In this document: positions 7,016 to 32,531 of the stretch, piece after piece | Layout of the letters: the number at the start of each line of letters is the position of its first letter | How positions within the stretch are numbered: position 1 is the first letter of the stretch | Assembly: GCA_016779225.1 (NCBI GenBank) | Contig: JADHNZ010000034.1 | Location: 1 to 34,179 of the forward strand | Direction: 5' to 3' | Origin: Planctomycetota bacterium | GTDB taxonomy: Bacteria; Planctomycetota; UBA1135; GCA-002686595 | DNA: 34,179 bases | Made by a program: the position numbers and the translations under genes | Notes under the pieces: generated by a model | Told to the model about the DNA's origin: nothing | Seen by the model: the letters and a program-made list of their open reading frames with translations, nothing else | Databases searched by the model: none

Positions 7016-7073
7016 GGCCGACCGCTTGCGGTTGGCCTCAAAAAGGCGGAGGGCCGACCGCTTGCGGTTGGCC
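7016..7073. repeat. Two copies of a 22-nt imperfect palindrome, GGCCGACCGCTTGCGGTTGGCC (7016-7037 and 7052-7073)
   Basis: The direct duplication is read directly from the sequence. Each copy folds as a hairpin (GGCCGACCGC/GCGGTTGGCC). It shares a GGCCGACC core with the hairpin at 7082-7115. Confidence 0.7.
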
Positions 7074-7081
7074 CCAGACAA

Positions 7082-7115
7082 ACGGAGGGCCGACCCCAAG
7101 GGGTCGGCCCTCCGT
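7082..7115 (-). terminator. Strong GC hairpin (about 16 bp stem: ACGGAGGGCCGACCCC aa GGGGTCGGCCCTCCGT) just downstream of the tRNA 3' end; probable terminator
   Basis: A perfect inverted repeat is read from the sequence. On the minus strand it is followed by TCCGTTTGTC. It is positioned a few nt after the tRNA CCA end. Confidence 0.4.
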
Positions 7116-7121
7116 GTGGAT

Positions 7122-7198
7122 TGGTAGCGGAGGCGGGACTCGAACCCGCGACCTCAGGGTTATGAATCCTGTGCTCTAACCAGCTGAGCTACCCCGCC
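7122..7198 (-). tRNA. tRNA-Met (CAT anticodon), 77 nt with encoded CCA; elongator-type, but tRNA-Ile2 (lysidine) cannot be excluded
   Basis: The reverse complement reads GGCGGGGTAGCTCAGCTGGTTAGAGCACAGGATTCATAACCCTGAGGTCGCGGGTTCGAGTCCCGCCTCCGCTACCA. The D arm is GCTC/GAGC, the anticodon loop is TTCATAA, and the T arm is GCGGG-TTCGAGT-CCCGC. The acceptor stem is 7 bp with two G-U pairs. Confidence 0.9.
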
Positions 7199-7305
7199 AT
7201 CGAGGGCGGAGAAGGTACGCCGGGGGGGGCCGCTGGTCAAGGAGACCCGCTCGTCCCCCCCGCCGCAGGACCCACGCGGCGAGGTCTCCGCACTCTGGAC
7301 GCCGC

Positions 7306-7899
7306 TCAGGCGCCCCAGGTCCCCGCGAGGACCTGCTCCCGGATCACAGCCGGATCGTCCCCCGCGCAGAGCTGCCCCCGGACCGAGTGGTAGCCCATGG
7401 CCACCGTCTCGGCGCGGCCAGTGTCCGCACAGAAGATGCGGCAGGTGTCGATCGGGTTCGAGTAGAGGTGCAGCGACACGGCCCGGCCGCCTCGCGGGCG
7501 GATCAGGTGGAACGCGATGCCGTCGTCGATGAAGGCGACCTGTCCTGCCTGGAAGGGCTGCACGCGCCCCTGCTCGATGCCACCCGCGGCCGGAGTGCGG
7601 TAGTGGACCTCCTCCAGCTCGCCCTGCAGGACCCCCATCCAGCAGCGCTGATCGGCGTGGTCGTGGATGGGGCTCTCCTGGCCCTCCTCCCAGCACAGCA
7701 GCAGCAGCTCGTAGGAGCCACACCGCGCCACCAGGTTGCGCGTGTAGCGCTCCTGACTGAAGTGGGTCCAGGAGCGCCAGTCCTCATGGTCCGCCTGGTA
7801 CCGGGAGAGCAGCTTCGGGACGCCCGGACCGCGGGGGTCACGGTCGAACTCGGCCTCGAGGGCGCGACAGAGCTGGTCGATGGGGAGCGGAGAGGCCAT
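7306..7899 (-). CDS. Cysteine dioxygenase type I (cupin)
   Basis: The protein carries CDO signature segments (YTRNLVARCGSYELLLLCWEEGQESPIHDHADQRCWMGVLQGEL; FHLIRP). Confidence 0.8.
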   Translation of the reverse strand: MASPLPIDQLCRALEAEFDRDPRGPGVPKLLSRYQADHEDWRSWTHFSQERYTRNLVARCGSYELLLLCWEEGQESPIHDHADQRCWMGVLQGELEEVHYRTPAAGGIEQGRVQPFQAGQVAFIDDGIAFHLIRPRGGRAVSLHLYSNPIDTCRIFCADTGRAETVAMGYHSVRGQLCAGDDPAVIREQVLAGTWGA

Positions 7900-7908
7900 C
7901 TCCCGAGC

Positions 7909-8310
7909 CTACCCGAGGGACCCGGCTTCCTCATCCCCCAGGGTGCGGATGCCCCCCCGAGAGACGGCGTAGAGCAGGCACGCGGGGTTCGCAGGGCCCG
8001 CAGGGGCGCCCGGATCCCCCAGGGCCACGGGCGCATGGCGGGTCCCCGGCTCATAGCGCAGATACTCGCCGGCACGATGCTCGCCCAGGTGGTCCCGATA
8101 GCCGCCCGCAAGGATGAGGACCTCCTCCGGGCCCAGGTGCTCGTGGGCGGGGTAGCCGCAGCCCGGCTCCATGCGGATGAGGACGGCCCCTCCGGCCCGC
8201 TCACCCCGGCCCTCGCTTGCCAGGAGGCACCACTGCACCCCGGGGGTCTTGGTGTCCCGCCAGGCCACGCCAGCACCGTCCACATCCAGCCTGAGCCCGG
8301 TCGCCGCCAT
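7909..8310 (-). CDS. Cupin-domain protein (ChrR C-terminal-like cupin)
   Basis: It has a cupin metal-site-like segment (GYPAHEHLGPEEVLILAGG...YLRYEPGTRHAP). It lies 9 nt upstream of CDO on the same strand, so the two are probably an operon. Confidence 0.55.
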   Translation of the reverse strand: MAATGLRLDVDGAGVAWRDTKTPGVQWCLLASEGRGERAGGAVLIRMEPGCGYPAHEHLGPEEVLILAGGYRDHLGEHRAGEYLRYEPGTRHAPVALGDPGAPAGPANPACLLYAVSRGGIRTLGDEEAGSLG

Positions 8311-8472
8311 GTCCCGACCTTAGCGCGAACGGGGCGGCTTCCCAGGAGTGGGAAGCCTCAGAAAGAACGGGCATGACCGGTCAATCAGAGCTTGCCCACT
8401 CGTAACTCTGTCCCTTGGGCATCGCACCCGGCGCCGCAGGCGTTCCCGGGAGCCTGGCGAAGTCCCACTCTC

Positions 8473-8500
8473 TCCCCGGGGGCCGCTGCAGGGGCAGCGG
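8473..8500 (-). terminator. 12-bp-stem GC hairpin (GGGGGCCGCTGC aggg GCAGCGGCCCCC); possible terminator downstream of the ppx operon
   Basis: A perfect inverted repeat is read from the sequence. There is no T-tract, which is common in GC-rich genomes. Confidence 0.3.
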
Positions 8501-8537
8501 CCCCCACCCTCTCCGGGCCGGCCGGTCCGCTGCAGGG

Positions 8538-8650
8538 CCCAGCCAGCGGCTTGAGGGAGGCCCAGCCAGCGGCTCGAGGGAGACTCAGCCAGCGGCTTGA
8601 GGGAGACTCAGCCAGCGGCTTGAGGGAGTTCCAGCCAACGGCTTGAGCCG
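8538..8650. repeat. Tandem direct repeat, 23-bp unit (AGCCAGCGGCTTGAGGGAGACTC), about 5 copies
   Basis: Copies begin at about 8541, 8564, 8587, 8610 and 8633, with point variants. The period is not a multiple of 3. The array is intergenic between the ppx stop and the cupin start. Confidence 0.85.
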
Positions 8651-13817: not shown

Positions 13818-13937
13818 GCTTGGCACGGGAGCGCTGTACTTGCTTGGCACCGGAGTGCTGTGCCTGCTGGGCACCGGAGTGCTGTGCCTGCTGGGCACCG
13901 GAGTGCTGTGCCTGCTGGGCACCGGAGTGCTGTGCTC
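13818..13937. repeat. Tandem direct repeat, 24-bp unit (CTGGGCACCGGAGTGCTGTGCCTG), about 5 copies
   Basis: Copies begin at about 13818 (degenerate), 13842, 13866, 13890 and 13914. The array lies immediately upstream of the metallophosphoesterase start and downstream of the anti-sigma stop. Confidence 0.85.
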
Positions 13938-21390: not shown

Positions 21391-23502
21391 CTAGCGCGCG
21401 CCCTGGGCCCCGGCCACCGCCACTCCGTCCACCTCGAGCTCGAGCGACCACCGCGCGGCGCCGCTGCGATCGCTCACGAGGAGCGGCTCGTCGTCCTCCG
21501 CCAGGAGCACCTCCTCCGCGAGGGTCGCTCCCGCTGCGTCGGTCCAGCGCAGGCGCCAGGCGCCCGCAGCCTCCTCCCGCACGGCCGAGGGCGCGTCGAA
21601 CGCCGCCAGGTCCAGGCTCCACCCTGCGTCGCTGCGCCGCGGCGTCGCCTGCGGTGGCAGCGGCCACGGCCGCGCGCTCACCTCGAGCGTGCGACCGGCG
21701 AGCGGTCCAACGAGGCGCAGGTCCGCGAGCGTCCCGGCCAGGGACCAGGTGAGCTCGCCGCGGAGGTCGAAGCAGGCAAAGGTTCCCTCGCCCGTCCGCA
21801 CCCAGGCACCCGTCGCACGGCCTGACCAGCCCGCGCCGGTGGTCCACTCCACGCTCGGCGGATCCTCCCCCGGCAGCGACGGCGGAACGGCCACGCGCAG
21901 GTGCGCGGTCCGCGCGGGCACGACCTGGGCCAGGGCGTCGGCAGGAGCCCCGAGCCAACGGGCCGGCAGCAGGTCCTGGCCGGGCTCCGGCCGCAGGAGC
22001 AGCCTCCCCGTGCCGGCGGCTCCGAGGAGGGCGCGGGGCACCAGCAGTCCAAGGCCCTCGCTGCGCCAGCGCACGCCGAGGTCGCCGCAGAGCGCCCGCC
22101 CAAGATCGCCGGGCTGAAGCAGACGCACGCGCGGAGAGAGAGGCCCGCCGAGGTCCGGCCCTCCCTCTGCCAGGCGGCGGCTGAGGAGCAGTGAGGGGTC
22201 CCGCGGAACGAGCAGGCGCTCCGCCGGGTCCTCGACCAGGATCCAGGTCGGCTCGAAGCCCGCCTCCTCAGCGGCGCCCTCGAGGTCTGCGCGCGCGGCG
22301 TCCACCGCGCGACCGGCCTCGCCGAGCGGCACGGCCACGCCGTGCGCCAGCCAGGCGAAGATCGGCACCACCAGCGCCGGCAGCAGACGCCTGCGCAGGT
22401 CAGGCACCGCGGTGACCATGACGCCCAGGCCGGCACACAGCACGACCGAGGCGAGCAGGAGGTTCTCCGCCCCGTCCAGGCTGAAGCTCGCCGCGCGGGT
22501 GTCCGCATCCAGCAGCAGCGCCAGCAGCACGGCAGCCCCCCAGCCGAGGGTCGCCCGGCCCCAGAACCGCGGTGCGGTGCGGCCGGCGATGAAGGCGGGG
22601 TGCAGGAGGAGAGCGAGTGAGAACAGCGCGGCGAGGATCGACAGGGGGCCCAGGCTGTCGAGGGGCGCGGGCATGAGGAGCACGCCGACCTTCTCCGCCG
22701 TCAGCGGGATCGCGAGCAGGTGAGCGGAGACCTCCTGGAAGGTGCGCGCGTCCTCTGGAGCGAGGCGCGCGCGCAGGGCGTACTCCGCGGACACGCACAC
22801 CGCACACAGCAGCGCGGTCAGGAGCGCCGTTCGCGTGCGCTGGCCCGAGCTGCGGAAGCGGCGCCCCGAGGCGGCCTCGAGGATCCCGTAGAGCGGGGGC
22901 AGATAGAGGGCCCAGCGCCCGCAGAGCCCGGCGAGGGTCGCCAGCAGGAAGGCGCGGCCCAGACGGCCCGCGGCCGGGTGGTCGCGATCCTGGCGCGCGC
23001 GCAGGAGCGCCGCCGCGCCGAACAGGCCGAACGCAAGGGCCAGCAGCTCGCCGCGCAGGTGCAGCTGCGGGACCGCCGCCACCGGAAGGGGGTGCACGAG
23101 GAGCAGGACCGCAGCGGCCAGCCCGCCCGCGCGCGCGCTGTCCTCCCCCACCCAGGGCGCCAGCGCCCGACGCACGACGAGGCGCAGGCCCATGGCCACG
23201 ACGAGGAGCACCGCCAGGTTCTCGAGGCGCAGCCAGGTCGCGGCCTGGGGCGTCCAGACCTTCTCGGCAGTCCAGATCGACCGCGAGAGGAAGAGGGACA
23301 GGGCCGCGAGCGGCCGGCCGTCGAGGTGAGGGACGCGGTAGAGCGAGGCCGGCCCCTTGCCGCTGAGGCCCGCCAGCAGCTCGAGGTCGTCGCCGAAGGG
23401 GCCCGCCGTGAGGGCCGGAGCATGGGCCCAGGCCACCAGCAGGCCGAGGGCCACGAGCCACGGCAGGGCGAGGCGGCGGGGAGCGTCCTCCATGGGCGTC
23501 AC
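21391..23502 (-). CDS. Large polytopic membrane protein with a C-terminal extracytoplasmic domain; function unknown, possibly a GT-C-like glycosyltransferase fold
   Basis: About 12 hydrophobic segments span the first ~420 aa. A soluble C-terminal region of about 280 aa follows. A DD/DE-containing first loop (FGDDLEL) resembles GT-C loops. The gene ends 11 nt upstream of queF on the same strand. Confidence 0.55.
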
Positions 23503-23533
23503 ATTAGCCCAGGGGCGCCGCTACCGTGTCGGG

Positions 23534-23986
23534 ATGCTCTCCACCTTCGAACCCCTGTGGCGCGCCGCCGAGGGCGTGGACCTCAGCGACTCCGCCGCAG
23601 CCGTCGCAACCCTGACCCAGCGCCTCGACCCGGCGAGCCCTGAGGGCCAGGCCCTCAGCTCCGCCCTGTGCGACCTCCTCGAGAGCGGAGCGGTTGCGGA
23701 CCGTGGCGCCCCCCCCGTGCGCTGGAGCCGCGTGGCCAAGGCCGGCCCCGAGACCGGCGCCTTCTCGATCGATGTGGTGCACATGAACGGGGCAGGCCCG
23801 CGCCACACGCACCACGAGGGCGAGGTGAACTGGTGCATCGCCCTCAGCGGCGAGCCGCGCTTCGACGGCCAGGGCCCCGGCTGGGTCGCGTTCCCTCCGG
23901 GCTCGACCCATGTGCCGACCGTGGAGGGCGGGGAGATGCTGATCGTCTACCTCCTGCCCAACGGAGCGGTCGAGTTCCACGCCTAA
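23534..23986 (+). CDS. Small cupin-like protein of unknown function
   Basis: It has a His-rich segment (RHTHHEGEVNWCIALSGEPRFDG...GSTHVPT) typical of cupin metal sites. The start is at the ATG at 23534 (MLSTFEPLW), inside the longer listed ORF. Confidence 0.45.
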   Translation: MLSTFEPLWRAAEGVDLSDSAAAVATLTQRLDPASPEGQALSSALCDLLESGAVADRGAPPVRWSRVAKAGPETGAFSIDVVHMNGAGPRHTHHEGEVNWCIALSGEPRFDGQGPGWVAFPPGSTHVPTVEGGEMLIVYLLPNGAVEFHA

Positions 23987-24131
23987 GGCGTGCAGGGGGC
24001 ACCGCTGGGAGGGCCACCGGTCCCGCGACGCCCCAGAGGTGTCCAAACCAAGGCCGTGAGTCGGGACAGGGACTTGGCGCCGTGACCTGCCGGACCCAGG
24101 AGGGTTGGGCTTCGGCCCCTCGCCCGACTCC

Positions 24132-25544
24132 ATGCCCATGCTGCGTGCCCTCCTGCCCCTGACCCTGGCCCTCCTCCTCCCCGACCCGGCATCCACCCGC
24201 GGGGGCATCCCGTGGGAGGCCGACTGGGCCGCCGCGCGCGATCGAGCCCGCACCGAGAACCGCGTCGTCTTCCTCGCGGTGAACATGGACGGCGAGCGCG
24301 CGAACGACCGCCTGGCCAAGGAGGTCTACCGGGAGAAGGCCGTGGTCGCCCTGGCCGAGCGGACGGTGCCCCTGGTCGCCAGTGCCTTCGCACACGGGAG
24401 CGGCGTCTGCCCGCGCTTCGGCGGGCTGCGCTGCGCCGAGCACCAGCAGGTGGACATCCGCGCGCGGGACGAGGTCCTCCAGCCCGACGCGGACGGGTTC
24501 GTGGTCGCGCCCCAGCATGTGTTCCTGGCGCCCGACGGCGCCGTGCTGCTCTCGGTCCCCTACGAGGTCACCGCGGACGAACTCGAGTGGTGCCTCGCCG
24601 AGGCCCTGCGCAAGCACGACCCCGAGGCGGAGGTGCGCCCGAGCTCCGGCGCGCGCCCGCCCAAGCGGCTCGTCATGGACGGGCTGGCCCCGGCCGAGGG
24701 GGCCGGAGGCCCCGGCCCGCCTACCCGCGAGGAGGTCCTCGAGCTGCTGCGCGAGCTCAAGAAGGGCACCCTCGAGGACCGAGGGAGCGCGGTCCGCCGC
24801 ATCATGACGGCGGACGAGGACGAGGCGCGCGAGTTCGCGGTCCAGGAGCTGCGCCGGTCCAACGGCGGCGGCAAGCGCGGCGGCGGAGGCGGAGGCGGCG
24901 CGACCTCGAACGAGGCCGGCTCGGGCCCGTGGGCGCGTCAGGAGGCCCTCGTGCGCCAGATCGGGCGCCTGTCCCCGCCCAGCTGGTGGGTGGTCGTCGA
25001 GGAGTTCGCAGGCAACGGGGACGAGGACCTGCGCGCCGAGGTGGCCGCCGCGCTGGAGCAGCTGCAGGCTCCCGACTCGAAGCGCCTGGTGGCCACGGCC
25101 CTGCGCAAGGAGCGCGTCCCCGCGCTCGAGGGAGCCTGGCTGCGCGCGCTGGCCAGCGTCGCGCCCGACGACCGCGCCTCGTTCGCCGCGCTGGAGAAGG
25201 CCATCCGCAAGCACAAGGAGGGGCTGGTCCGTGTGCAGGCGCTCGTCGGCCTCGGCTGGCTCGCTCCGAGCGAGGAGCGCAATGGGCTCCTGCTCGAGTT
25301 CCTGGGCGGCGAGCGCGAGGAGCTGGCGCGCGCCGCGGCCCTGGGCCTGGCCCTGACGCGGGAGGCCGACCACCTCGAGGCCCTGAAGGCACGCGTGGAG
25401 GGTGCCTCCCCGGCCCTGGCGGGCGACCTCGAGGCCGCGATCACCGTGCTCGAGACGGGCAGCCTCGAGCCCCTCGGCGCCCCCATCGCCAGCTTGTGCC
25501 GAGACGAGGTCCCGCGGGAGCGGTTCTTCGGCATGGCCCGCTGA
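24132..25544 (+). CDS. Secreted protein with an N-terminal thioredoxin-like (Thioredoxin_7-like, no CxxC) domain and C-terminal HEAT/PBS-lyase-type helical repeats
   Basis: It has a signal peptide (MPMLRALLPLTLALLLP). The pattern WEADWAAARDRARTENRVVFLAVNMD...LAKEVYREKAVVAL resembles thioredoxin-fold DUF255/Thioredoxin_7 but lacks CxxC. The C-terminal half is made of repeated helical pairs (RAEVAAALEQL...VQALVGLGWL...RAAALGLAL). Confidence 0.5.
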   Translation: MPMLRALLPLTLALLLPDPASTRGGIPWEADWAAARDRARTENRVVFLAVNMDGERANDRLAKEVYREKAVVALAERTVPLVASAFAHGSGVCPRFGGLRCAEHQQVDIRARDEVLQPDADGFVVAPQHVFLAPDGAVLLSVPYEVTADELEWCLAEALRKHDPEAEVRPSSGARPPKRLVMDGLAPAEGAGGPGPPTREEVLELLRELKKGTLEDRGSAVRRIMTADEDEAREFAVQELRRSNGGGKRGGGGGGGATSNEAGSGPWARQEALVRQIGRLSPPSWWVVVEEFAGNGDEDLRAEVAAALEQLQAPDSKRLVATALRKERVPALEGAWLRALASVAPDDRASFAALEKAIRKHKEGLVRVQALVGLGWLAPSEERNGLLLEFLGGEREELARAAALGLALTREADHLEALKARVEGASPALAGDLEAAITVLETGSLEPLGAPIASLCRDEVPRERFFGMAR

Positions 25545-25590
25545 CGCTCGGGACCCAAGGGAGATCGGAGCCCGGGGCCCGGCCCGAGCA

Positions 25591-25820
25591 CAGCGGAGCC
25601 GGGCTTGGCCGGCAGCGCCCGAGCGCAGAGCAGCCGGGCTCGGCCAGCACCGCCCAAGCACAGAGCAGCCGGGCTCGGCCGGCACCGCCCAAGCACAGAG
25701 CAGCCGGGCTCGGCCGGCAGCGCCCGAGCGCAGAGCAGCCGGGCTCGGCCGGCACCGCCCAAGCACAGAGCAGCCGGGCTCGGCCAGCACCGCCCAAGCA
25801 CAGCGCAGCCGGGCTCGGAT
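25591..25820. repeat. Tandem direct repeat, 35-bp unit (CAGCCGGGCTCGGCCGGCACCGCCCAAGCACAGAG), about 6.5 copies
   Basis: Copies begin at about 25596 (degenerate), 25631, 25666, 25701, 25736, 25771 and 25806 (partial), with G/A variants at fixed positions. The array lies in the 380-bp intergenic region upstream of the three-paralog operon. Confidence 0.85.
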
Positions 25821-25926
25821 CCGCGTCCGGGTCCGAGCCCGACCCCGCAAGTGGGGTTCGAGGCCACTGCGCGCGCGCTAGGATGGGACCCGAGGGCGCC
25901 CCGCGCGGGCGCCCGGCCCCTGCCCC

Positions 25927-27453
25927 TTGCGACGCACCGCCCCGCTCCGACTCCTTGCCTGCGTGCCGCTCCTGGCGGCAGTCCCGCCCGCTCCCGCAGC
26001 GGGTGGCTCGCCCCTCCCCCCGCCCAAAGCCAGCGCGCAGCCGAGCCTCCGCGCCGACTTCGACGAGGCCCGAGCCGGGCTCCGTGCCCAGACCGCTACG
26101 GCCCTGGAGGACCTGGCCGAAGCCTGCCAGAAGGAGAAGGCCTACCTGCAGCGGGACCTGACCTACGACGCGGTGCTGAAGTTCGATCCGGACCACGCCA
26201 AGGCCCGCAAATACCTGGGCTACAAGCAGGACCGCAAGACCGGCGAGTGGTCGCGGCCGCGGGAGTACAAAGCCCCCAGGGACAAGGACCACGCCGCGGC
26301 CCTCGAGCTCCTCGAGCAGCGCGCGGGCGTGCTGGCGGGGCACACGGACCGGCTGCTCGCACTCTTGGAGGAGCACCGCGCCGACCTGCCCAAGGCGCGC
26401 TTCCAGCAGGAGGTCGATGAGCTCCTGGACGCTGACCCGGACTCCGAGCGCCTCCGCGCCATGGTGGGTCAGGTCAAGGTCGAGATCGACGGCCAGACGC
26501 GGTGGATGAGCAAGGCCACGGCGCTCACCCTGACCCAGCGCAAGGAGCAGCGCGCGGCCTGGGACGAGGCTCGCAGCGGCGCGCCCGAGCCCGCACCCGC
26601 TGAGGCCGAGACCTTCGAGACCGAGCTCGGGGTGACCTTCACCGGGGTGGTCGAGACCGAGCACTACCGGGTCCTGGCGAGCTCGGGCAAGGGTGAGGCC
26701 GCCGAGGTGGCGCGCCTCCTCGAAGCCCTCACCACCTGGATGCATCCGCTCCTCGGCACGCGCCACTCCCAGGGCCAGGTGCGCGTGTACCTGATGTCCG
26801 CCAAGGCCGGGGAGGACTTCACCGACAAGTTCCCGGGGATCGCGGCCACCGACAGGCTGCGCTACAAGGGCATCAACGGCGCCTGGATGGCGAGCAGCGA
26901 GCGCCTCGGCGTCTGGAACGGCACCAAGGAGAGCCGCGTCGACCAGGCCCTGCGCCTGATCATCAGCTATGCGCTGCTCGACACCTACGGCCGCACCGAG
27001 GACGGCACCTGGGTGAAGGGCGGCATGCCCGGCTGGATCGAGCAGGGCCTGGGCATCTATCTGGTCTGGCAGATGGCCGGGACCAAGCTCTCGCTGCAAA
27101 TCAAGGAGCGCGACTCGTCGGCAACGGGCCGCCCCGACTACATCGAGAACCTGCGCGATGAGGACGCCAACTGGATCACCCTCGCTCGGCGGATGATGGG
27201 CGGAGCGCGGAAGCCGAGCCTCGCGATCAGCCTCGGCAAGGACGCCATGGCCATGGAGCCTGACGACCTGCTGCTTGCCTACGCCGTCTCGGCCTGGCTC
27301 GTCGAGGGCCACGAGGCCGAGCTCGTCCACCGCATCCTCTCGCGCTGTGGCCAGCGCGAGGCCACCGTCAAGGTCTTCGAGGAGGAGCTCGGCATGCCCC
27401 TCCCGCGCATCGAGAGCGCCCTCATCGCCTGGCTCGACGAGGTCCGCAAGTGA
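25927..27453 (+). CDS. Secreted protein of unknown function, paralog A of a tandem triplet
   Basis: It has a signal peptide (MRRTAPLRLLACVPLLAAVPPAPAAG). It shares family motifs with the next two genes (EACQKEKAYLQR; DPDHAKARKYLGYKQDRKTGEW; GWIEQGLGIYLVWQ; DLLLAYAVSAWLVEG). Confidence 0.7.
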   Translation: MRRTAPLRLLACVPLLAAVPPAPAAGGSPLPPPKASAQPSLRADFDEARAGLRAQTATALEDLAEACQKEKAYLQRDLTYDAVLKFDPDHAKARKYLGYKQDRKTGEWSRPREYKAPRDKDHAAALELLEQRAGVLAGHTDRLLALLEEHRADLPKARFQQEVDELLDADPDSERLRAMVGQVKVEIDGQTRWMSKATALTLTQRKEQRAAWDEARSGAPEPAPAEAETFETELGVTFTGVVETEHYRVLASSGKGEAAEVARLLEALTTWMHPLLGTRHSQGQVRVYLMSAKAGEDFTDKFPGIAATDRLRYKGINGAWMASSERLGVWNGTKESRVDQALRLIISYALLDTYGRTEDGTWVKGGMPGWIEQGLGIYLVWQMAGTKLSLQIKERDSSATGRPDYIENLRDEDANWITLARRMMGGARKPSLAISLGKDAMAMEPDDLLLAYAVSAWLVEGHEAELVHRILSRCGQREATVKVFEEELGMPLPRIESALIAWLDEVRK

Positions 27454-28964
27454 GCATCCCCACCACCATGAGCATCCGCCTGCACCCCCTCCTCGCCCTC
27501 TCCCCGCTCCTGCTGGGCGCGGGCGCGCCCAGCCTGACCCTCGCGCCGAACCACGCGGCGGCTGCCGGGCTTCTCGCGTCGCTGCCCGCCGAGCGAGCGG
27601 ACTTCGACAAGGAGCTACGCGAGCTGCAGGGTCTCCTGGTGAGCGACCTGGAGCAGGTCGCGGACGCCTGCCAGAAGGTCAAGGCGTTCCTGCAGCGCAA
27701 CCGGGCCTACGAGCTGATCCTGGAGTACGACCCCGAGCACAAGAACGCGCGCAAGTTCCTCGGCTACAAGTACGACCGCAAGGCCGAGGAGTGGACCATG
27801 CCGCGCAAGCCGCGCGACCCCAAGGACGCCAGCGACGAGGCCGTCGCGGAGGCCGCGGCGGAGCGGGTCCGGATCCTGGGGGGCCACAGGCAGCGCATGC
27901 TGCAGCTCCTCGACGCCCACCCGGATCTGCCCCTGAAGCTCAAGAACCGCGAGCTCAAGCGGCTGGTCGCGCTCCTTCCCGACGACGCCGAGCTGCGCGG
28001 GATGCGACGCGAGGTGCGCAGCGAGGGCGAGGACGGGACGGTGACCTGGATGCTCGAGGAGAGCCTGCGCGGGAACAAGGTCCACAAGGAGAACGAGGCC
28101 CTGCTCAAGAAGATGAAGAGCGGCGCCCCCACCCCCACCGAGGAGCCCCTCGAGGACTGGGAGAAGGAGCTCGGGGCAGGGTTCCTCGACAAGGCCGCGG
28201 TGACCGACCGCGTGCGCGTCGTCGGGAACGCCTCGACCAGCGAGAACGAGACCGGCGCCCGGATGTGCCACATCATCTGGGACTACCTCGAGCACCTGTT
28301 CGGGATCGGCCTCGAGCCCTCGTACACCACCTATCACATCGAGGGCCGCTCGGCGAAGAGCAGCTTCCTCGGCAACTGGCCGGGCCTCGACCCGGACCAG
28401 GTCGAGTACCTCAAGGGGACCGGCGGCAGCACGCTCTCGGGGCGCGAGATGTTCCAGTCGGGCCCGACCAGCGACAACCGCGTAGACGGCTCGGTGCGCA
28501 TGTCCATCGCGATGTACATGGGGCGCAACTTCGGGGTCGGCTCGAGCACGGGCTGGGCGATCGAGGGCTTCGGCATGTACATCACGCACCAGCTCCTCGG
28601 CACTCGCCTGACCTATTTCATCCGGCGAACCGACTATGTCCAGAAGGGCAAGAAGCGGGACCTCCAGGACCCCAACGCGAACTGGATGAAGATGGCGCTC
28701 GAGGTCCTGACGGACGAGAAGCCCTTCAACCTGCCCTTCGCCATGGGGCGCGATGTGAACAACCTCACCCCGGACGACCTGCTGGTGTCCTACGCCCTGG
28801 CGGCCTACCTGCTCGAGGGCTGCGAGCCGGAGACGGCGACCACCGTGCTGTCCAAGATGGGGACCGAGGGCGTGGGCGGCGTGCAGGCCGTCGAGCAGAC
28901 CCTCGGGTTCGATATCGAGACGGTCCGGGACCGCCTCGCCCAGTGGCTGCAGGAGCGTGACTGA
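27450..28964 (+). CDS. Secreted protein of unknown function, paralog B of a tandem triplet
   Basis: Its start overlaps the upstream stop (GTGA; an alternative start is the ATG at 27468). It has a signal peptide. It carries the shared motifs DACQKVKAFLQR, DPEHKNARKFLGYKYDRKAEEW, GWAIEGFGMYITHQLLGTRL and LLVSYALAAYLLEGCEPE. Confidence 0.7.
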   Translation: MSIPTTMSIRLHPLLALSPLLLGAGAPSLTLAPNHAAAAGLLASLPAERADFDKELRELQGLLVSDLEQVADACQKVKAFLQRNRAYELILEYDPEHKNARKFLGYKYDRKAEEWTMPRKPRDPKDASDEAVAEAAAERVRILGGHRQRMLQLLDAHPDLPLKLKNRELKRLVALLPDDAELRGMRREVRSEGEDGTVTWMLEESLRGNKVHKENEALLKKMKSGAPTPTEEPLEDWEKELGAGFLDKAAVTDRVRVVGNASTSENETGARMCHIIWDYLEHLFGIGLEPSYTTYHIEGRSAKSSFLGNWPGLDPDQVEYLKGTGGSTLSGREMFQSGPTSDNRVDGSVRMSIAMYMGRNFGVGSSTGWAIEGFGMYITHQLLGTRLTYFIRRTDYVQKGKKRDLQDPNANWMKMALEVLTDEKPFNLPFAMGRDVNNLTPDDLLVSYALAAYLLEGCEPETATTVLSKMGTEGVGGVQAVEQTLGFDIETVRDRLAQWLQERD

Positions 28965-30448
28965 TGACCAGCCCGCTCACCCTCCTCCTCCCTGCCGTGC
29001 TCGGAGCCCCGATCCTGTGGGGGCCTGCGGTGCCCCTCCGGCCCGCGTCGAGCGCGAGCACACCGGGAGCCCCCGCGTTGGCCCGTCCCCAGGACGAGGC
29101 CCGGGCCGCACTCGACAAGCAGCTGGCCTGGGAGCTGGAGGGCCTGGCGGAGCGCTGCCAGCAGGCGAAGGCGTTCGTGGAGCGCAACGCCACCTACGAG
29201 CTGCTCCTGCGCTTCGACCCCGAGCACGCCAAGGCGCGCAAGACCCTGGGGCACAAGAAGGACCGCAAGTCGGGCGAGTGGACGGTCCCCGAGCGCAGCC
29301 GCCCCCCGAAGGCCGCCGAGGAGGAGATCGCTGCGCCGCTGCGCGCCGAGCGCGAGACCCTGCTGCGCGGCCATGTGGACGCGGTTCTGGTCCTGCTGGA
29401 CGGGCAGGAGCTGCCCGTCCGGATCCTGCGCCGGGAGGAGCAGCGCCTGCTGGAGCTGATGCCCGACCATGAGGGCCTGCGTGAGCGCACGGGCGAGGTC
29501 CGCGAGGGGGACTCGTGGGTGCTGCGGGAGACGGTCCACGCGCGCCTCACCCGCAAGGCGCACGAGAAGCTGCGCGGCGACCTGAAGGGGGCAGCCCCCG
29601 ACCCGGCCGAGGCCGCGATCGAGGCCGCGGAACAGACCTGGGGCGTCACCTTCTCCAAGGCCCTCGCGACGCCCGCCGTGCGCGTGGTCTCCGCGGTGTC
29701 GGACGGTGAGGCCAGCGAGACGGCGAAGCGAGCCCATGCGACCTACGCCTATCTGGATCAGCTGCTCGGCACCACGGACACCCTCGCCCAGGGAACGCTC
29801 TACCTGTTCGAGGGGCCCGCGGCCACGGCCGCGTTCTGCCAGGCGTACCCCGGGCTTGAGGAGGCGACCCGCAAGCTCTTCGGCGGACTCCTCTGCTCCT
29901 ACCTCGACCACCACCACGCCAACGCATCCAGCGCCAAGCGCGAGGAGCGCCTGGACGGGGCCGTGCGGATGAGCATCGCGCGGCACCTCGCGTGGACCAC
30001 CGGGACCTGGAGCAAGCACGGCTGGATCGCCGAGGGCTTCGGGATCTACATCACGCACCAGATGACGGGCACGCGCCTGATCTACACCGTGCGCGAGTCC
30101 GAGGGCAGCAGCTCCAAGGGCGGTGACAAGGTCGAGGACCGCATGAAGCGCAAGGACGCCGACTGGCTGGCGCTCGCGCGCACGACCCTCCAGGGCAAGG
30201 ATGCGCCGAAGCTGGCCTTCACCCTCGGGCGCGATGTGAACACCCTCACCCGCGGCGATGTGCTGGTGGCGAACGCCCTCGCGGCCTACCTGCTCGAGGG
30301 CTGCGAGCCGGGGACCGCCCTGCGGGTGCTCAAGCGAATCGGGCGGGACGAGGTCGGCTCCGCCAAGGCCCTCGAGGAGGAGCTCGGGCTCGACCCGCCG
30401 GCCCTCGAGCGGCGCCTCATCCGCTGGCTCGAGGAGCTGGGCAAGTAG
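28964..30448 (+). CDS. Secreted protein of unknown function, paralog C of a tandem triplet
   Basis: Its start overlaps the upstream stop as TGATG. It has a signal peptide (MTSPLTLLLPAVLGAPILWG). It carries the shared motifs ERCQQAKAFVER, DPEHAKARKTLGHKKDRKSGEW, GWIAEGFGIYITHQMTGTRL and LVANALAAYLLEGCEPG. Confidence 0.7.
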   Translation: MTSPLTLLLPAVLGAPILWGPAVPLRPASSASTPGAPALARPQDEARAALDKQLAWELEGLAERCQQAKAFVERNATYELLLRFDPEHAKARKTLGHKKDRKSGEWTVPERSRPPKAAEEEIAAPLRAERETLLRGHVDAVLVLLDGQELPVRILRREEQRLLELMPDHEGLRERTGEVREGDSWVLRETVHARLTRKAHEKLRGDLKGAAPDPAEAAIEAAEQTWGVTFSKALATPAVRVVSAVSDGEASETAKRAHATYAYLDQLLGTTDTLAQGTLYLFEGPAATAAFCQAYPGLEEATRKLFGGLLCSYLDHHHANASSAKREERLDGAVRMSIARHLAWTTGTWSKHGWIAEGFGIYITHQMTGTRLIYTVRESEGSSSKGGDKVEDRMKRKDADWLALARTTLQGKDAPKLAFTLGRDVNTLTRGDVLVANALAAYLLEGCEPGTALRVLKRIGRDEVGSAKALEEELGLDPPALERRLIRWLEELGK

Positions 30449-30482
30449 CGTGTCCGCTGGCCCCTCTGCGCAGGAGCCCCGC

Positions 30483-31757
30483 ATGGGGCTCCTCGAGCGC
30501 CTGCTGCGCTCGGCCGCGGGTCGGATCCTGCTGGTGGCGGCCAGCGTCGCGCTGCTCGCCGGCGCGAACACGCTCGAGCTGAGCAGCGCCCTGGCGGGCC
30601 GCAGCTTCGGCCCCGCCCTGGACGAGGGCGCCTTCTTCCTCTCCCAGCTCACGCGCTGGGGCCTCTGGGGAGCGGTCGCTCTCCTGGGCATCGTCCCCCT
30701 CATGCAGCTCAGCGGCCGCTGGAGTCGGCCCCAGCAGGTCCTGGGGCACCTGCTGCTGGCGGGCGCCTCCACCTGGGCAGTCGGGACGATCTGGAGCGCG
30801 CTGCGGCCGCAGCTGCCAAGCCCGTTCGACTTCAGCACGATGGAGGAGCTGCGTGGAGACCGCCCTGGCCCCCCGCGGGGCGAGCGAGGAGAGCGCGCCC
30901 CTGCGCCCGAGGATCCGGAGGAGGACCTGGAGGACCGCCCCCCGCGCAGGCAGGGGCGCTTCGACCCCCGCCGCGGACGGGGGGCCTTCGGTCGCGAGGA
31001 CGACACCCTCGACCGGTGGCTCACCCACGGCCTGCTCCTGCTGCTCTGCGCCGGGGGCGCCAGCCACCTGCGCTCCGAGGAGGCGCGCCGGCGGGCCTCC
31101 GCGCTCGCCATCGAGCGCGCGCAGCTCGCAGGCGAGCTCACCACCGCCCAGCTCGCCTCCCTGGAGGCCCAGCTGCGCCCCCACTTCCTGTTCAACGCCC
31201 TGCACTCGGTCGGCGCCCTGATGCGGCTCGGTCGCAGCGATGAGGCCCGTACGGCCCTGGTCACCCTGGGGGACCTCCTGCGCGGCACCCTCGACCGCTC
31301 GCGCGAGGGCCGCTCCACCCTGGCCGACGAGCTCGAGCTGTGCGAGAGCTACCTGGACCTGGAGCGGCTGCGCCACGGAGACCGGCTGGCGGTGACGACG
31401 ACCTGCCCGGAGGAGGCGCGCACCTGCGAGGTGCCGCCGCTGCTGCTGTTGCCCCTGGTCGAGAATGCCGTGCGCCACGGCCTCGAGCGCACGACCCAGC
31501 CCGTGGAGGTGCGCCTGCGCGTGGATCTCGCGGACGGACACCTCCAGCTCATCGTGGAGAATGATGGTCCCCCGCTCCCGCCCGAGGTGCTGCAGGCGGG
31601 GCAGGGCCAGGGCATCGGCCTCGCGAACACGCGCAAGCGCATCGGAACCCTGTACGGCGCGCGCGGTTCCATGACCCTTGAGAATCCGCCCTCGGGTGGC
31701 GCACGGGTGGTGCTCGGCCTGCCCTGCTCCCAAGGTGCACACGACCCGAGCTCCTGA
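30483..31757 (+). CDS. LytS/AlgZ-type sensor histidine kinase (His_kinase + HATPase_c) with a short transmembrane sensor and a charged disordered linker
   Basis: It carries the family signature LRPHFLFNALHSV followed by an HATPase region (LLPLVENAVRHG...GQGIGLANTRKR). It has N-terminal hydrophobic helices. The start is at the ATG at 30483 (MGLLERLL), in frame with listed ORF 30258..31757. Confidence 0.8.
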   Translation: MGLLERLLRSAAGRILLVAASVALLAGANTLELSSALAGRSFGPALDEGAFFLSQLTRWGLWGAVALLGIVPLMQLSGRWSRPQQVLGHLLLAGASTWAVGTIWSALRPQLPSPFDFSTMEELRGDRPGPPRGERGERAPAPEDPEEDLEDRPPRRQGRFDPRRGRGAFGREDDTLDRWLTHGLLLLLCAGGASHLRSEEARRRASALAIERAQLAGELTTAQLASLEAQLRPHFLFNALHSVGALMRLGRSDEARTALVTLGDLLRGTLDRSREGRSTLADELELCESYLDLERLRHGDRLAVTTTCPEEARTCEVPPLLLLPLVENAVRHGLERTTQPVEVRLRVDLADGHLQLIVENDGPPLPPEVLQAGQGQGIGLANTRKRIGTLYGARGSMTLENPPSGGARVVLGLPCSQGAHDPSS

Positions 31758-31829: not shown

Positions 31830-32531
31830 ATGCCTCACCTTCGCACCCTCGTCGCCGACGACGAGCCGCTCTCGCGCGCCGAGCTGGCGGCCCTTGTCGA
31901 GCAGCACCCTGACCTCGAGCTCGTCGCCACCTGCTCCGACGGCCCGAGCGCTCGGGCCTGCCTCGAGACCGCGGAGGTGGACCTGGCCTTCCTCGATGTG
32001 GAGATGCCCGGCTGCAGCGGCCTCGAGGTCGTGCGCTCTCTCGGCCCGCGTGCACCGCGCGCCGTGGTGTTCGCCACCGCGCACCCCGAGTTCGCGGTCG
32101 AGGCCTTCGAGGTGCGCGCCATCGACTACCTCCTCAAGCCCTACGACCCCGAGCGCTTCGCCGCCGCCGTCGAGCGCGCACAGGACAGGCTCGAGGCCTC
32201 CGGCGAGGGCGCCCGCCTCGTACTCCGCAAGGAGGGGCGCATGGAGGTCGTGGTCCTCTCCTCCCTGCGCTGGGTCGAGGCCGCGGACCAATATGTCCTG
32301 CTGCACACGACCGAGGGCAACCGCCTGATGCGGGAGTCCATGGCGCGCATGGAGGCGGCCCTCACCCCCCACGGCTTCCTGCGGGTCCACCGCTCCGCGA
32401 TCGTCCCCCTCGCCGCGGTCCGCGAGCTCCGCTCCCTCCCCTCGGGCGGGGGCGAACTGGTCCTCGAGGGCGGGGACCGGGTCCCGGTCAGCCGCTCCAG
32501 GGCCCCCGAGGTCCGCAGGGCCCTGGGCTGA
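31830..32531 (+). CDS. LytTR-family response regulator (receiver + LytTR DNA-binding domain)
   Basis: The receiver domain has the conserved aspartates (VADDEP...DLAFLDVEMPGCSGLEV...IDYLLKP). The C-terminal LytTR fold is indicated by VVLSSLRWVEAADQYVLLHT...FLRVHRSAIV. Confidence 0.85.
   Translation: MPHLRTLVADDEPLSRAELAALVEQHPDLELVATCSDGPSARACLETAEVDLAFLDVEMPGCSGLEVVRSLGPRAPRAVVFATAHPEFAVEAFEVRAIDYLLKPYDPERFAAAVERAQDRLEASGEGARLVLRKEGRMEVVVLSSLRWVEAADQYVLLHTTEGNRLMRESMARMEAALTPHGFLRVHRSAIVPLAAVRELRSLPSGGGELVLEGGDRVPVSRSRAPEVRRALG

Follow-up and report, generated by a model that had tools for sequence, protein, structure and literature searches.

The 35-bp tandem array located between a HEAT-repeat gene and an operon of three paralogous genes most likely represents an ordinary bacterial minisatellite that evolves fast, rather than a conserved platform on which the LytTR regulator docks, because sister species that possess the operon lack the array and near-identical strains already differ within it. 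The probability that it is a young, lineage-specific minisatellite of the VNTR type, lying in a non-conserved part of the intergenic spacer, is put at about 0.7. The features of the 34,179-nucleotide stretch of DNA analysed here (the window) on which this reading is based are listed in Table 1.

Table 1. Coordinates of the genes, repeats and palindromes discussed in the text (positions in the window)
Feature	Position	Strand or context	Basis or remark
23-bp x 4.8 tandem array	8538-8647	between minus-strand genes	TRF
24-bp x 4.9 tandem array	13818-13935	between minus-strand genes	TRF
PnbB-like gene	ends 23986		
HEAT-repeat gene, upstream of the 35-bp array	24138-25544	+	
Species-specific spacer segment	25546-25845	.	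blastn break points, alignment
35-bp tandem array, unit types X and Y, 6.8 copies	25582-25818	.	TRF, repeat search, unit alignment
Palindrome/hairpin CGGGCTCGGATCCG-cgtc-CGGGTCCGAGCCCG	25810-25841	.	fold compared with shuffles
Small second hairpin ACCCCGcaagTGGGGT	25842-25857	.	directly 3' of the palindrome
Putative proximal promoter and leader block	25846-25926	+	conserved with L001
Three tandem paralogs	25927-27453, 27450-28964, 28964-30448	+	signal-peptide-like N-termini, no Pfam family
LytS-type histidine kinase (His_kinase + HATPase_c)	~30480 to 31757	+	
Response_reg + LytTR regulator	31830-32531	+	

The array was delimited with Tandem Repeats Finder (TRF; 91% matches, score 383), and a repeat search recovered seven in-register copies with a spacing of exactly 35 bp. 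The consensus unit, GCCCAAGCACAGAGCAGCCGGGCTCGGCCGGCACC, searched with up to three mismatches, occurred five times in the window, each time within the array, and not once in 100 shuffles. The head-to-tail array noticed in the original prediction is therefore real, and its location had been correctly recognised, but the start proposed for it, 25591, was about 9 bp late and the proposed number of copies was 6.5 instead of 6.8. The units abut directly, as had been stated, and the absence of unique spacers rules out a CRISPR array. When the units were aligned in register, variation was found to be restricted to positions 5, 9, 13, 30 and 34. The G/A polymorphisms that had been described at fixed positions are indeed present at positions 5, 9 and 30, but the alternatives are C/G at position 34 and A/C at position 13. 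Positions 34, 5 and 9 are linked and thereby define two unit types, X (...GGCAGCGCCCGAGCGCAG...) and Y (...GGCACCGCCCAAGCACAG...), which follow each other in the order X Y Y X Y Y. This order amounts to a 105-bp higher-order repeat and is the reason why TRF also reported the tract with a period of 105 bp (2.3 copies), at a higher percentage of matches (94%) than with the 35-bp period.

The motif GCCGGGCTCGGC, which is identical to its reverse complement in 10 of its 12 positions, is the quasi-palindrome that had been attributed to every unit; it is exact in the five internal units, but differs by one base in each of the two edge units. More generally, divergence is greatest in the first and last units, while the internal units are homogenised, with a 20-nt core, CAGAGCAGCCGGGCTCGGCC, identical across all five of them. 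Diverged edge units combined with homogenised internal units are the usual signature of arrays that evolve by unequal exchange. A short history could explain this invariance of the core, but so could constraint. In its organisation, i.e. several head-to-tail direct repeats of a size between ~10 and 100 bp, the array corresponds to a minisatellite.

The gene map of the region was established by codon-position GC analysis and Pfam; in this map the start of the kinase was estimated at about 30480, the ORF as listed beginning at 30258, within paralog 3. A glutamyl-tRNA synthetase encoded in the window had its best match, with 72% identity, in a Planctomycetota MAG, and MAGs of Planctomycetota also gave the next best matches, which identifies the host as an uncultured planctomycete of very high GC content. 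The array begins 38 bp after the stop codon of the HEAT gene and ends 108 bp before the TTG start codon of paralog 1 at 25927, in good agreement with the distance of about 100 bp given before, and 144 bp before an alternative GTG start at 25963, which is the one used by gene callers. Its placement upstream of a triplet operon also held, as the downstream genes are true paralogs with 32-40% pairwise identity. None of the three products (~500 aa each) matched a Pfam family, even at E<5, and only three homologs of paralog 2 were found among 5.8 billion proteins, two of them being orthologs from sister lineages. The three paralogs are thus predicted to represent a very rare and uncharacterised family of secreted proteins, encoded beside a LytS/LytTR system.

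All six reading frames are open across the array, as they are in most of the surrounding 77%-GC region. The real genes of this region have a GC3 of 0.90-0.97 and a GC2 near 0.5, and the ORFs that cross the array show shadow-frame patterns. A coding tandem repeat is ruled out by the period of 35, by the codon-position GC and by the fact that the segment is missing in relatives. The non-coding nature of the array, initially deduced from a period that is not a multiple of three, is therefore also supported by the lack of a GC3 signature in the crossing ORFs and by the comparison with related genomes. Known structured RNA families were ruled out as well, since the Rfam scan returned only a sub-threshold chance match (20.6 bits compared to a gathering score of 100, E = 0.37). 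Scans of the region with the sigma-70 promoter and intrinsic terminator consensus found nothing.

Two sister lineages were identified through contigs encoding homologs of paralog 2. Both, represented by L001 and L003, have the same PnbB-HEAT-paralog gene order as the window, and the kinase and the regulator are also present on L002, another contig of the closer lineage. In a blastn alignment, L001 is 90.6% identical to the window up to the HEAT stop codon (25545) and 93.5% identical from 25846 onward, but the intervening 300 bp, which comprise the array and the terminal palindrome, are replaced in L001 by 91 bp of unrelated sequence. L003, with 77-82% DNA identity, has a HEAT-to-paralog spacer of ~117 bp. 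The species-specific segment of the window consists of the array, preceded by a 36-bp leader and followed by the palindrome's right arm, and no degenerate unit was detectable by local alignment in the 36 bp preceding the array. TRF detected no array in L001 or L003, and the 12-mer unit core is missing from both. A single progenitor unit in the sister spacers was also considered and rejected, as local alignments of a unit dimer to these spacers scored no better than shuffles. The array is thus not conserved at the orthologous site of two relatives despite their conserved flanks, and this lack of conservation is a second property that it shares with minisatellites.

The block from 25846 to the start codon of paralog 1, in contrast to the array, is conserved in L001. 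It contains a -10-like motif, TAGGAT, at 25880-25885, which is also kept in L003 and reads TAsGAT (TAGGAT/TACGAT) across all three lineages; the block is accordingly referred to here as a putative promoter, the sigma-70 consensus scan having given no match. Just before paralog 1, at 25894-25914, the same block contains a leader palindrome, GGGCGCCC-cgcgc-GGGCGCCC, which would qualify more readily than the array as a candidate conserved regulatory site or RNA hairpin, because it is identical in L001. Since both sister lineages keep the HEAT-to-triplet gene order and lack the unit, and the closer one also keeps the putative proximal promoter block, their sequences indicate that operon and block exist without the array. 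A function gained recently in this species may nevertheless be compatible with the absence of the array from sister species.

The array was also compared between contigs of the same species. The Logan contig L085 (SRR12042686) is 100% identical to window positions 25791-27973 and starts inside the last unit. L094 (ENA ERZ23495192, sample SAMN03444909), which originates from another metagenome, is 99.67% identical to the window over 4202 bp (21474-25675), carries the array and ends inside it, 131 bp past the HEAT stop codon. Of the 14 mismatches that separate L094 from the window, seven fall within the 94 array bases compared (odds ratio 47; p = 6.8e-9, Fisher test), a difference seen in the last 131 bp of a short-read contig, where the assembly path through a repeat can mix unit variants. 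Five of these seven mismatches are at the variable positions 5, 9, 30 and 34, a pattern that looks as if unequal exchange or conversion had reshuffled unit variants already present. The unit composition of the array therefore differs between the window and L094, as seen in contigs that end inside the array. The proposal of a contingency locus made in the original prediction is partly supported by this difference in unit composition, the array being ~47 times more different than its flanks between strains that are otherwise 99.67% identical, but a variation in copy number and an effect on expression are only putative. The array is real in independent data sets, and the short-read contigs of the population stop or start within it (L085, L094), as expected for a true repeat. 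It thereby explains why short-read assemblies of this population break at this point, and it could serve as a strain marker for an uncultured marine population of Planctomycetota.

At its 3' end the array runs into the palindrome at 25810-25841, the left arm of which is the core of the last array unit. This palindrome forms a 14-bp stem, including one G·T pair, with a 4-nt loop. The 3' end of the array folds as DNA with a z-score of -4.27, none of 200 shuffles folding as well, and the terminal hairpin folds as RNA with -40.6 kcal/mol (z = -4.22). The single array units gave z-scores of -0.4 to -0.8, and since this stability is no better than that of shuffles, a hairpin in each unit was ruled out. 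The spacer as a whole is marginally structured (z = -1.73 on the + strand and -2.24 on the - strand). Possible roles of the palindrome are those of an operator or of a terminator for the HEAT gene. As for the small second hairpin that follows it, its right half falls in the block conserved with L001.

The following course of events would account for these observations. A segment of ~35 bp, with the left arm of the palindrome as its 3' half, would have been amplified head-to-tail, the likely mechanism being slippage during replication or unequal exchange between sister strands. Slipped misalignment is known to be favoured by hairpins. A second amplification would later have occurred with the 105-bp block of three units, and continuing unequal exchange or gene conversion would reshuffle the few variant positions, which is the proposed reason why the array differs between near-identical strains. 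The array would not be needed for the expression or regulation of the triplet operon, because sister species would run the operon from the conserved proximal promoter in its absence. Any effect that it has would probably be non-specific and dependent on copy number, possibly through a change in the distance or insulation between the end of the HEAT gene with its hairpin and the promoter of the operon. That the array originated by slippage or unequal exchange, that it was nucleated at the hairpin and that it lacks a sequence-specific function is what we infer from the comparisons above, and the array probably has no sequence-specific role.

The occurrence of the unit elsewhere was searched at several levels of stringency. 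No copy of the unit or of its core was found in the 34-kb window outside the array, the 16-nt unit core having been searched with up to two mismatches. A 24-nt probe, present in five units, had no exact match in 185,579 species genomes (one genome per species) and no match in the JGI metagenome collection, neither of which includes the source genome. No sign of a dispersed element was thus seen in the window or in these two collections; related arrays at other loci of the source genome may exist. Related arrays were searched with a gapped probe made of two 14-nt cores, 15-30 nt apart, which had no match in viral contigs and matched eight metagenome loci, all of them unrelated repeats; for six of the eight, the period is a multiple of three (18, 21 or 36 bp). 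A perfect 34-bp repeat of 2.3 copies at positions 92-170 of an unrelated high-GC metagenome contig (L092), upstream of a VOC/glyoxalase-like gene, has AGCCGGGCTCGGCC plus CAGC-CCCGAGCG in common with the X-type unit. It was rejected as a relative of the array and judged to be a chance resemblance of GC-rich repeats in an unrelated genome. Identical arrays scattered elsewhere, which the original prediction had named as the evidence that would count against it, were thus seen neither in the 34-kb window nor in any of the collections searched (genomes, metagenomes and viral contigs).

The array was then compared to documented repeat systems. MIRU-VNTRs are intergenic minisatellites of mycobacteria, found for instance in the senX3-regX3 intergenic region. 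Like the array, they consist of direct repeats of tens of bp between co-directional genes, are not conserved in related species and have more diverged units at their edges; they also vary between close strains, as the array probably does. However, MIRUs form a dispersed family, with the same unit at ~40 loci, and often contain short ORFs coupled to the flanking genes, whereas the array unit was found at one locus only in the window and the collections searched, and has no coding signature. The phase-variable promoter repeats, such as the TAAA tract of nadA and the TA tract of hif, are likewise promoter-proximal tandem repeats, and they vary between strains, as the array probably does. Their units are 1-7 bp long and they act on the -35/-10 spacing or on an adjacent regulator site, whereas the unit of the array is 35 bp long and its end lies ~60 bp upstream of the -10-like element. 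REP and BIME elements and CRISPR are similar to the array in that they are GC-rich, partly palindromic, intergenic and located after a stop codon. Nevertheless, REPs are dispersed and BIMEs alternate in orientation, whereas the array units are all direct and were found at one locus, and CRISPR repeats are separated by unique spacers, of which the array has none.

Among the alternatives to a minisatellite of no specific function, the array might be a tunable promoter element of the contingency type, in which the gain or loss of 35-bp units would change the expression of the triplet operon and the variation would be selected rather than neutral. Such an effect could be exerted through altered insulation from HEAT read-through, through a shift of an upstream site in position or phase, or through a change in local DNA structure. 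The location of the array directly upstream of the conserved promoter block and its strong polymorphism between 99.67%-identical strains are consistent with this possibility, as is the calculation that three units, or 105 bp, correspond to ten helical turns. We nevertheless consider it unlikely, as the array ends ~60 bp upstream of the -10-like element, unlike the known phase-variable tracts, and as two further intergenic arrays, built from other units, are present in the 34-kb window and suggest that this genome has a general mutational propensity, rather than that selection is specific to this locus.

These two other arrays begin 7 and 25 bp after the stop codons of co-directional genes, and the 35-bp array itself begins 38 bp past a stop codon and ends in a hairpin with a 14-bp stem. 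From this arrangement, the array might be viewed as the 3' end of the HEAT transcript, with a putative role as a terminator, an insulator or an RNA-stabilising element. This appears quite improbable, because the structure of the whole spacer reaches only z = -1.73 on the + strand and single units fold like shuffles, because a U-tract is absent and the terminator scan gave no match, and because the sister species do without the array. Moreover, one hairpin would suffice for such a role, so that the array itself would be left unexplained.

The proposal with which this analysis started, namely that the LytTR regulator, whose gene closes the operon, might bind the array at multiple sites, was assessed against the known sites of such regulators. 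These consist of two repeats of 9-11 nt, 11-13 nt apart (PMC4847170), and for LytTR regulatory systems, as distinct from two-component systems of the LytS type, a position of the repeats 4-11 bp upstream of the -35 element is described (PMC6193735). The general idea would draw on the fact that LytTR proteins bind repeated motifs and that the regulator gene is nearby; like the array, the sites of the AgrA, YpdB, BtsR and HdrR type are repeated motifs upstream of a promoter adjoining a LytTR gene. However, the geometry of the array differs, as its 35-bp period leaves ~25 nt between cores instead of 11-13 nt (PMC4847170), and ~7 copies are present instead of one pair (PMC4847170). The position differs as well: the array spans about -62 to -298 relative to the -10-like TAGGAT and is therefore far upstream of the 4-11 bp before -35 reported for LytTR repeats (PMC6193735), and it has not been conserved together with the regulator. 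The closest correspondence is found in the palindrome, whose outer arms (25810-25819 and 25832-25841) are 10 nt long and 12 nt apart and thus match the documented arrangement (PMC4847170), but pairing continues inward from these arms to form a stem of 14 bp that closes on a loop of 4 nt, which points to a plain hairpin. Above all, the array, the palindrome and any unit-like sequence are missing upstream of the operon in the two sister lineages. A role as a LytTR platform is consequently very unlikely and this part of the original prediction is not upheld. A repeat next to a LytTR gene readily invites a regulatory explanation, which in this case the comparison with sister lineages corrects.

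Finally, that the array is an artefact, created or inflated by mis-assembly, is hardly credible: near-identical 35-bp units are difficult to assemble in copy number and the short-read contigs do break there, but two further independent assemblies carry units with the correct unique flanks (L094 on the 5' side and L085 on the 3' side), so that the existence of the array is secure and its exact copy number alone is uncertain.

The preferred reading of the array as a minisatellite can be set beside the two other arrays of the window (Table 1). The 23-bp array begins 7 bp after the Ppx/GppA stop codon (8654) and lies 228 bp upstream of the start of a cupin gene (8310); a perfect hairpin with a 12-bp stem is located at 8478-8505, 33 bp beyond it, and the same-species short-read contig L095 stops 29 bp short of it. 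The 24-bp array starts 25 bp after the stop codon of a zf-HC2 (anti-sigma-like) gene (13960) and fills the spacer between this stop and the likely ATG of a Metallophos gene (13810); a 100% identical Logan contig (L097) begins inside it. Together, the three arrays occupy ~465 of the ~2,900 intergenic bp of the window (~16%), and each of them, with ~5-7 copies, begins 7-38 bp past the stop codon of the co-directional gene that precedes it. In ~100 kb of related Planctomycetota loci from MAG and metagenome assemblies, one weak comparable repeat was found (17 bp x 2.6). The density of arrays may reflect a genome-wide propensity. It is tempting, if rather unlikely, to go further and to suppose that the species carries an unusual class of fast-evolving minisatellites just after stop codons, each possibly amplified from the arm of a flanking hairpin, which might act as terminators or insulators tunable by copy number. 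If this density of post-stop arrays were genome-wide, it would provide a natural case for the study of hairpin-seeded minisatellites in very GC-rich bacteria. A general rule by which an inverted unit copy flanks each array was examined with the consensus units and came out marginal at best, with p ~0.06 for the 35-bp and 24-bp arrays and no significance for the 23-bp array.

Another repeated structure is present at 7016-7198 of the window, between the end of an ADP-ribosylglycohydrolase/VWA gene and a tRNA-Met gene (7122-7198, minus strand). It consists of two copies of the hairpin GGCCGACCGCTTGCGGTTGGCC, each with an A-rich tail and arranged with a 36-bp period, and of a third hairpin, GGGCCGACCCCAAGGGGTCGGCCC; these look like duplicated terminator hairpins. 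The same-species contig L095 (ERZ23495192) differs from window positions 7102-8509 by one indel of ~43 nt and two mismatches, corresponding to 96.9% identity over the alignment.
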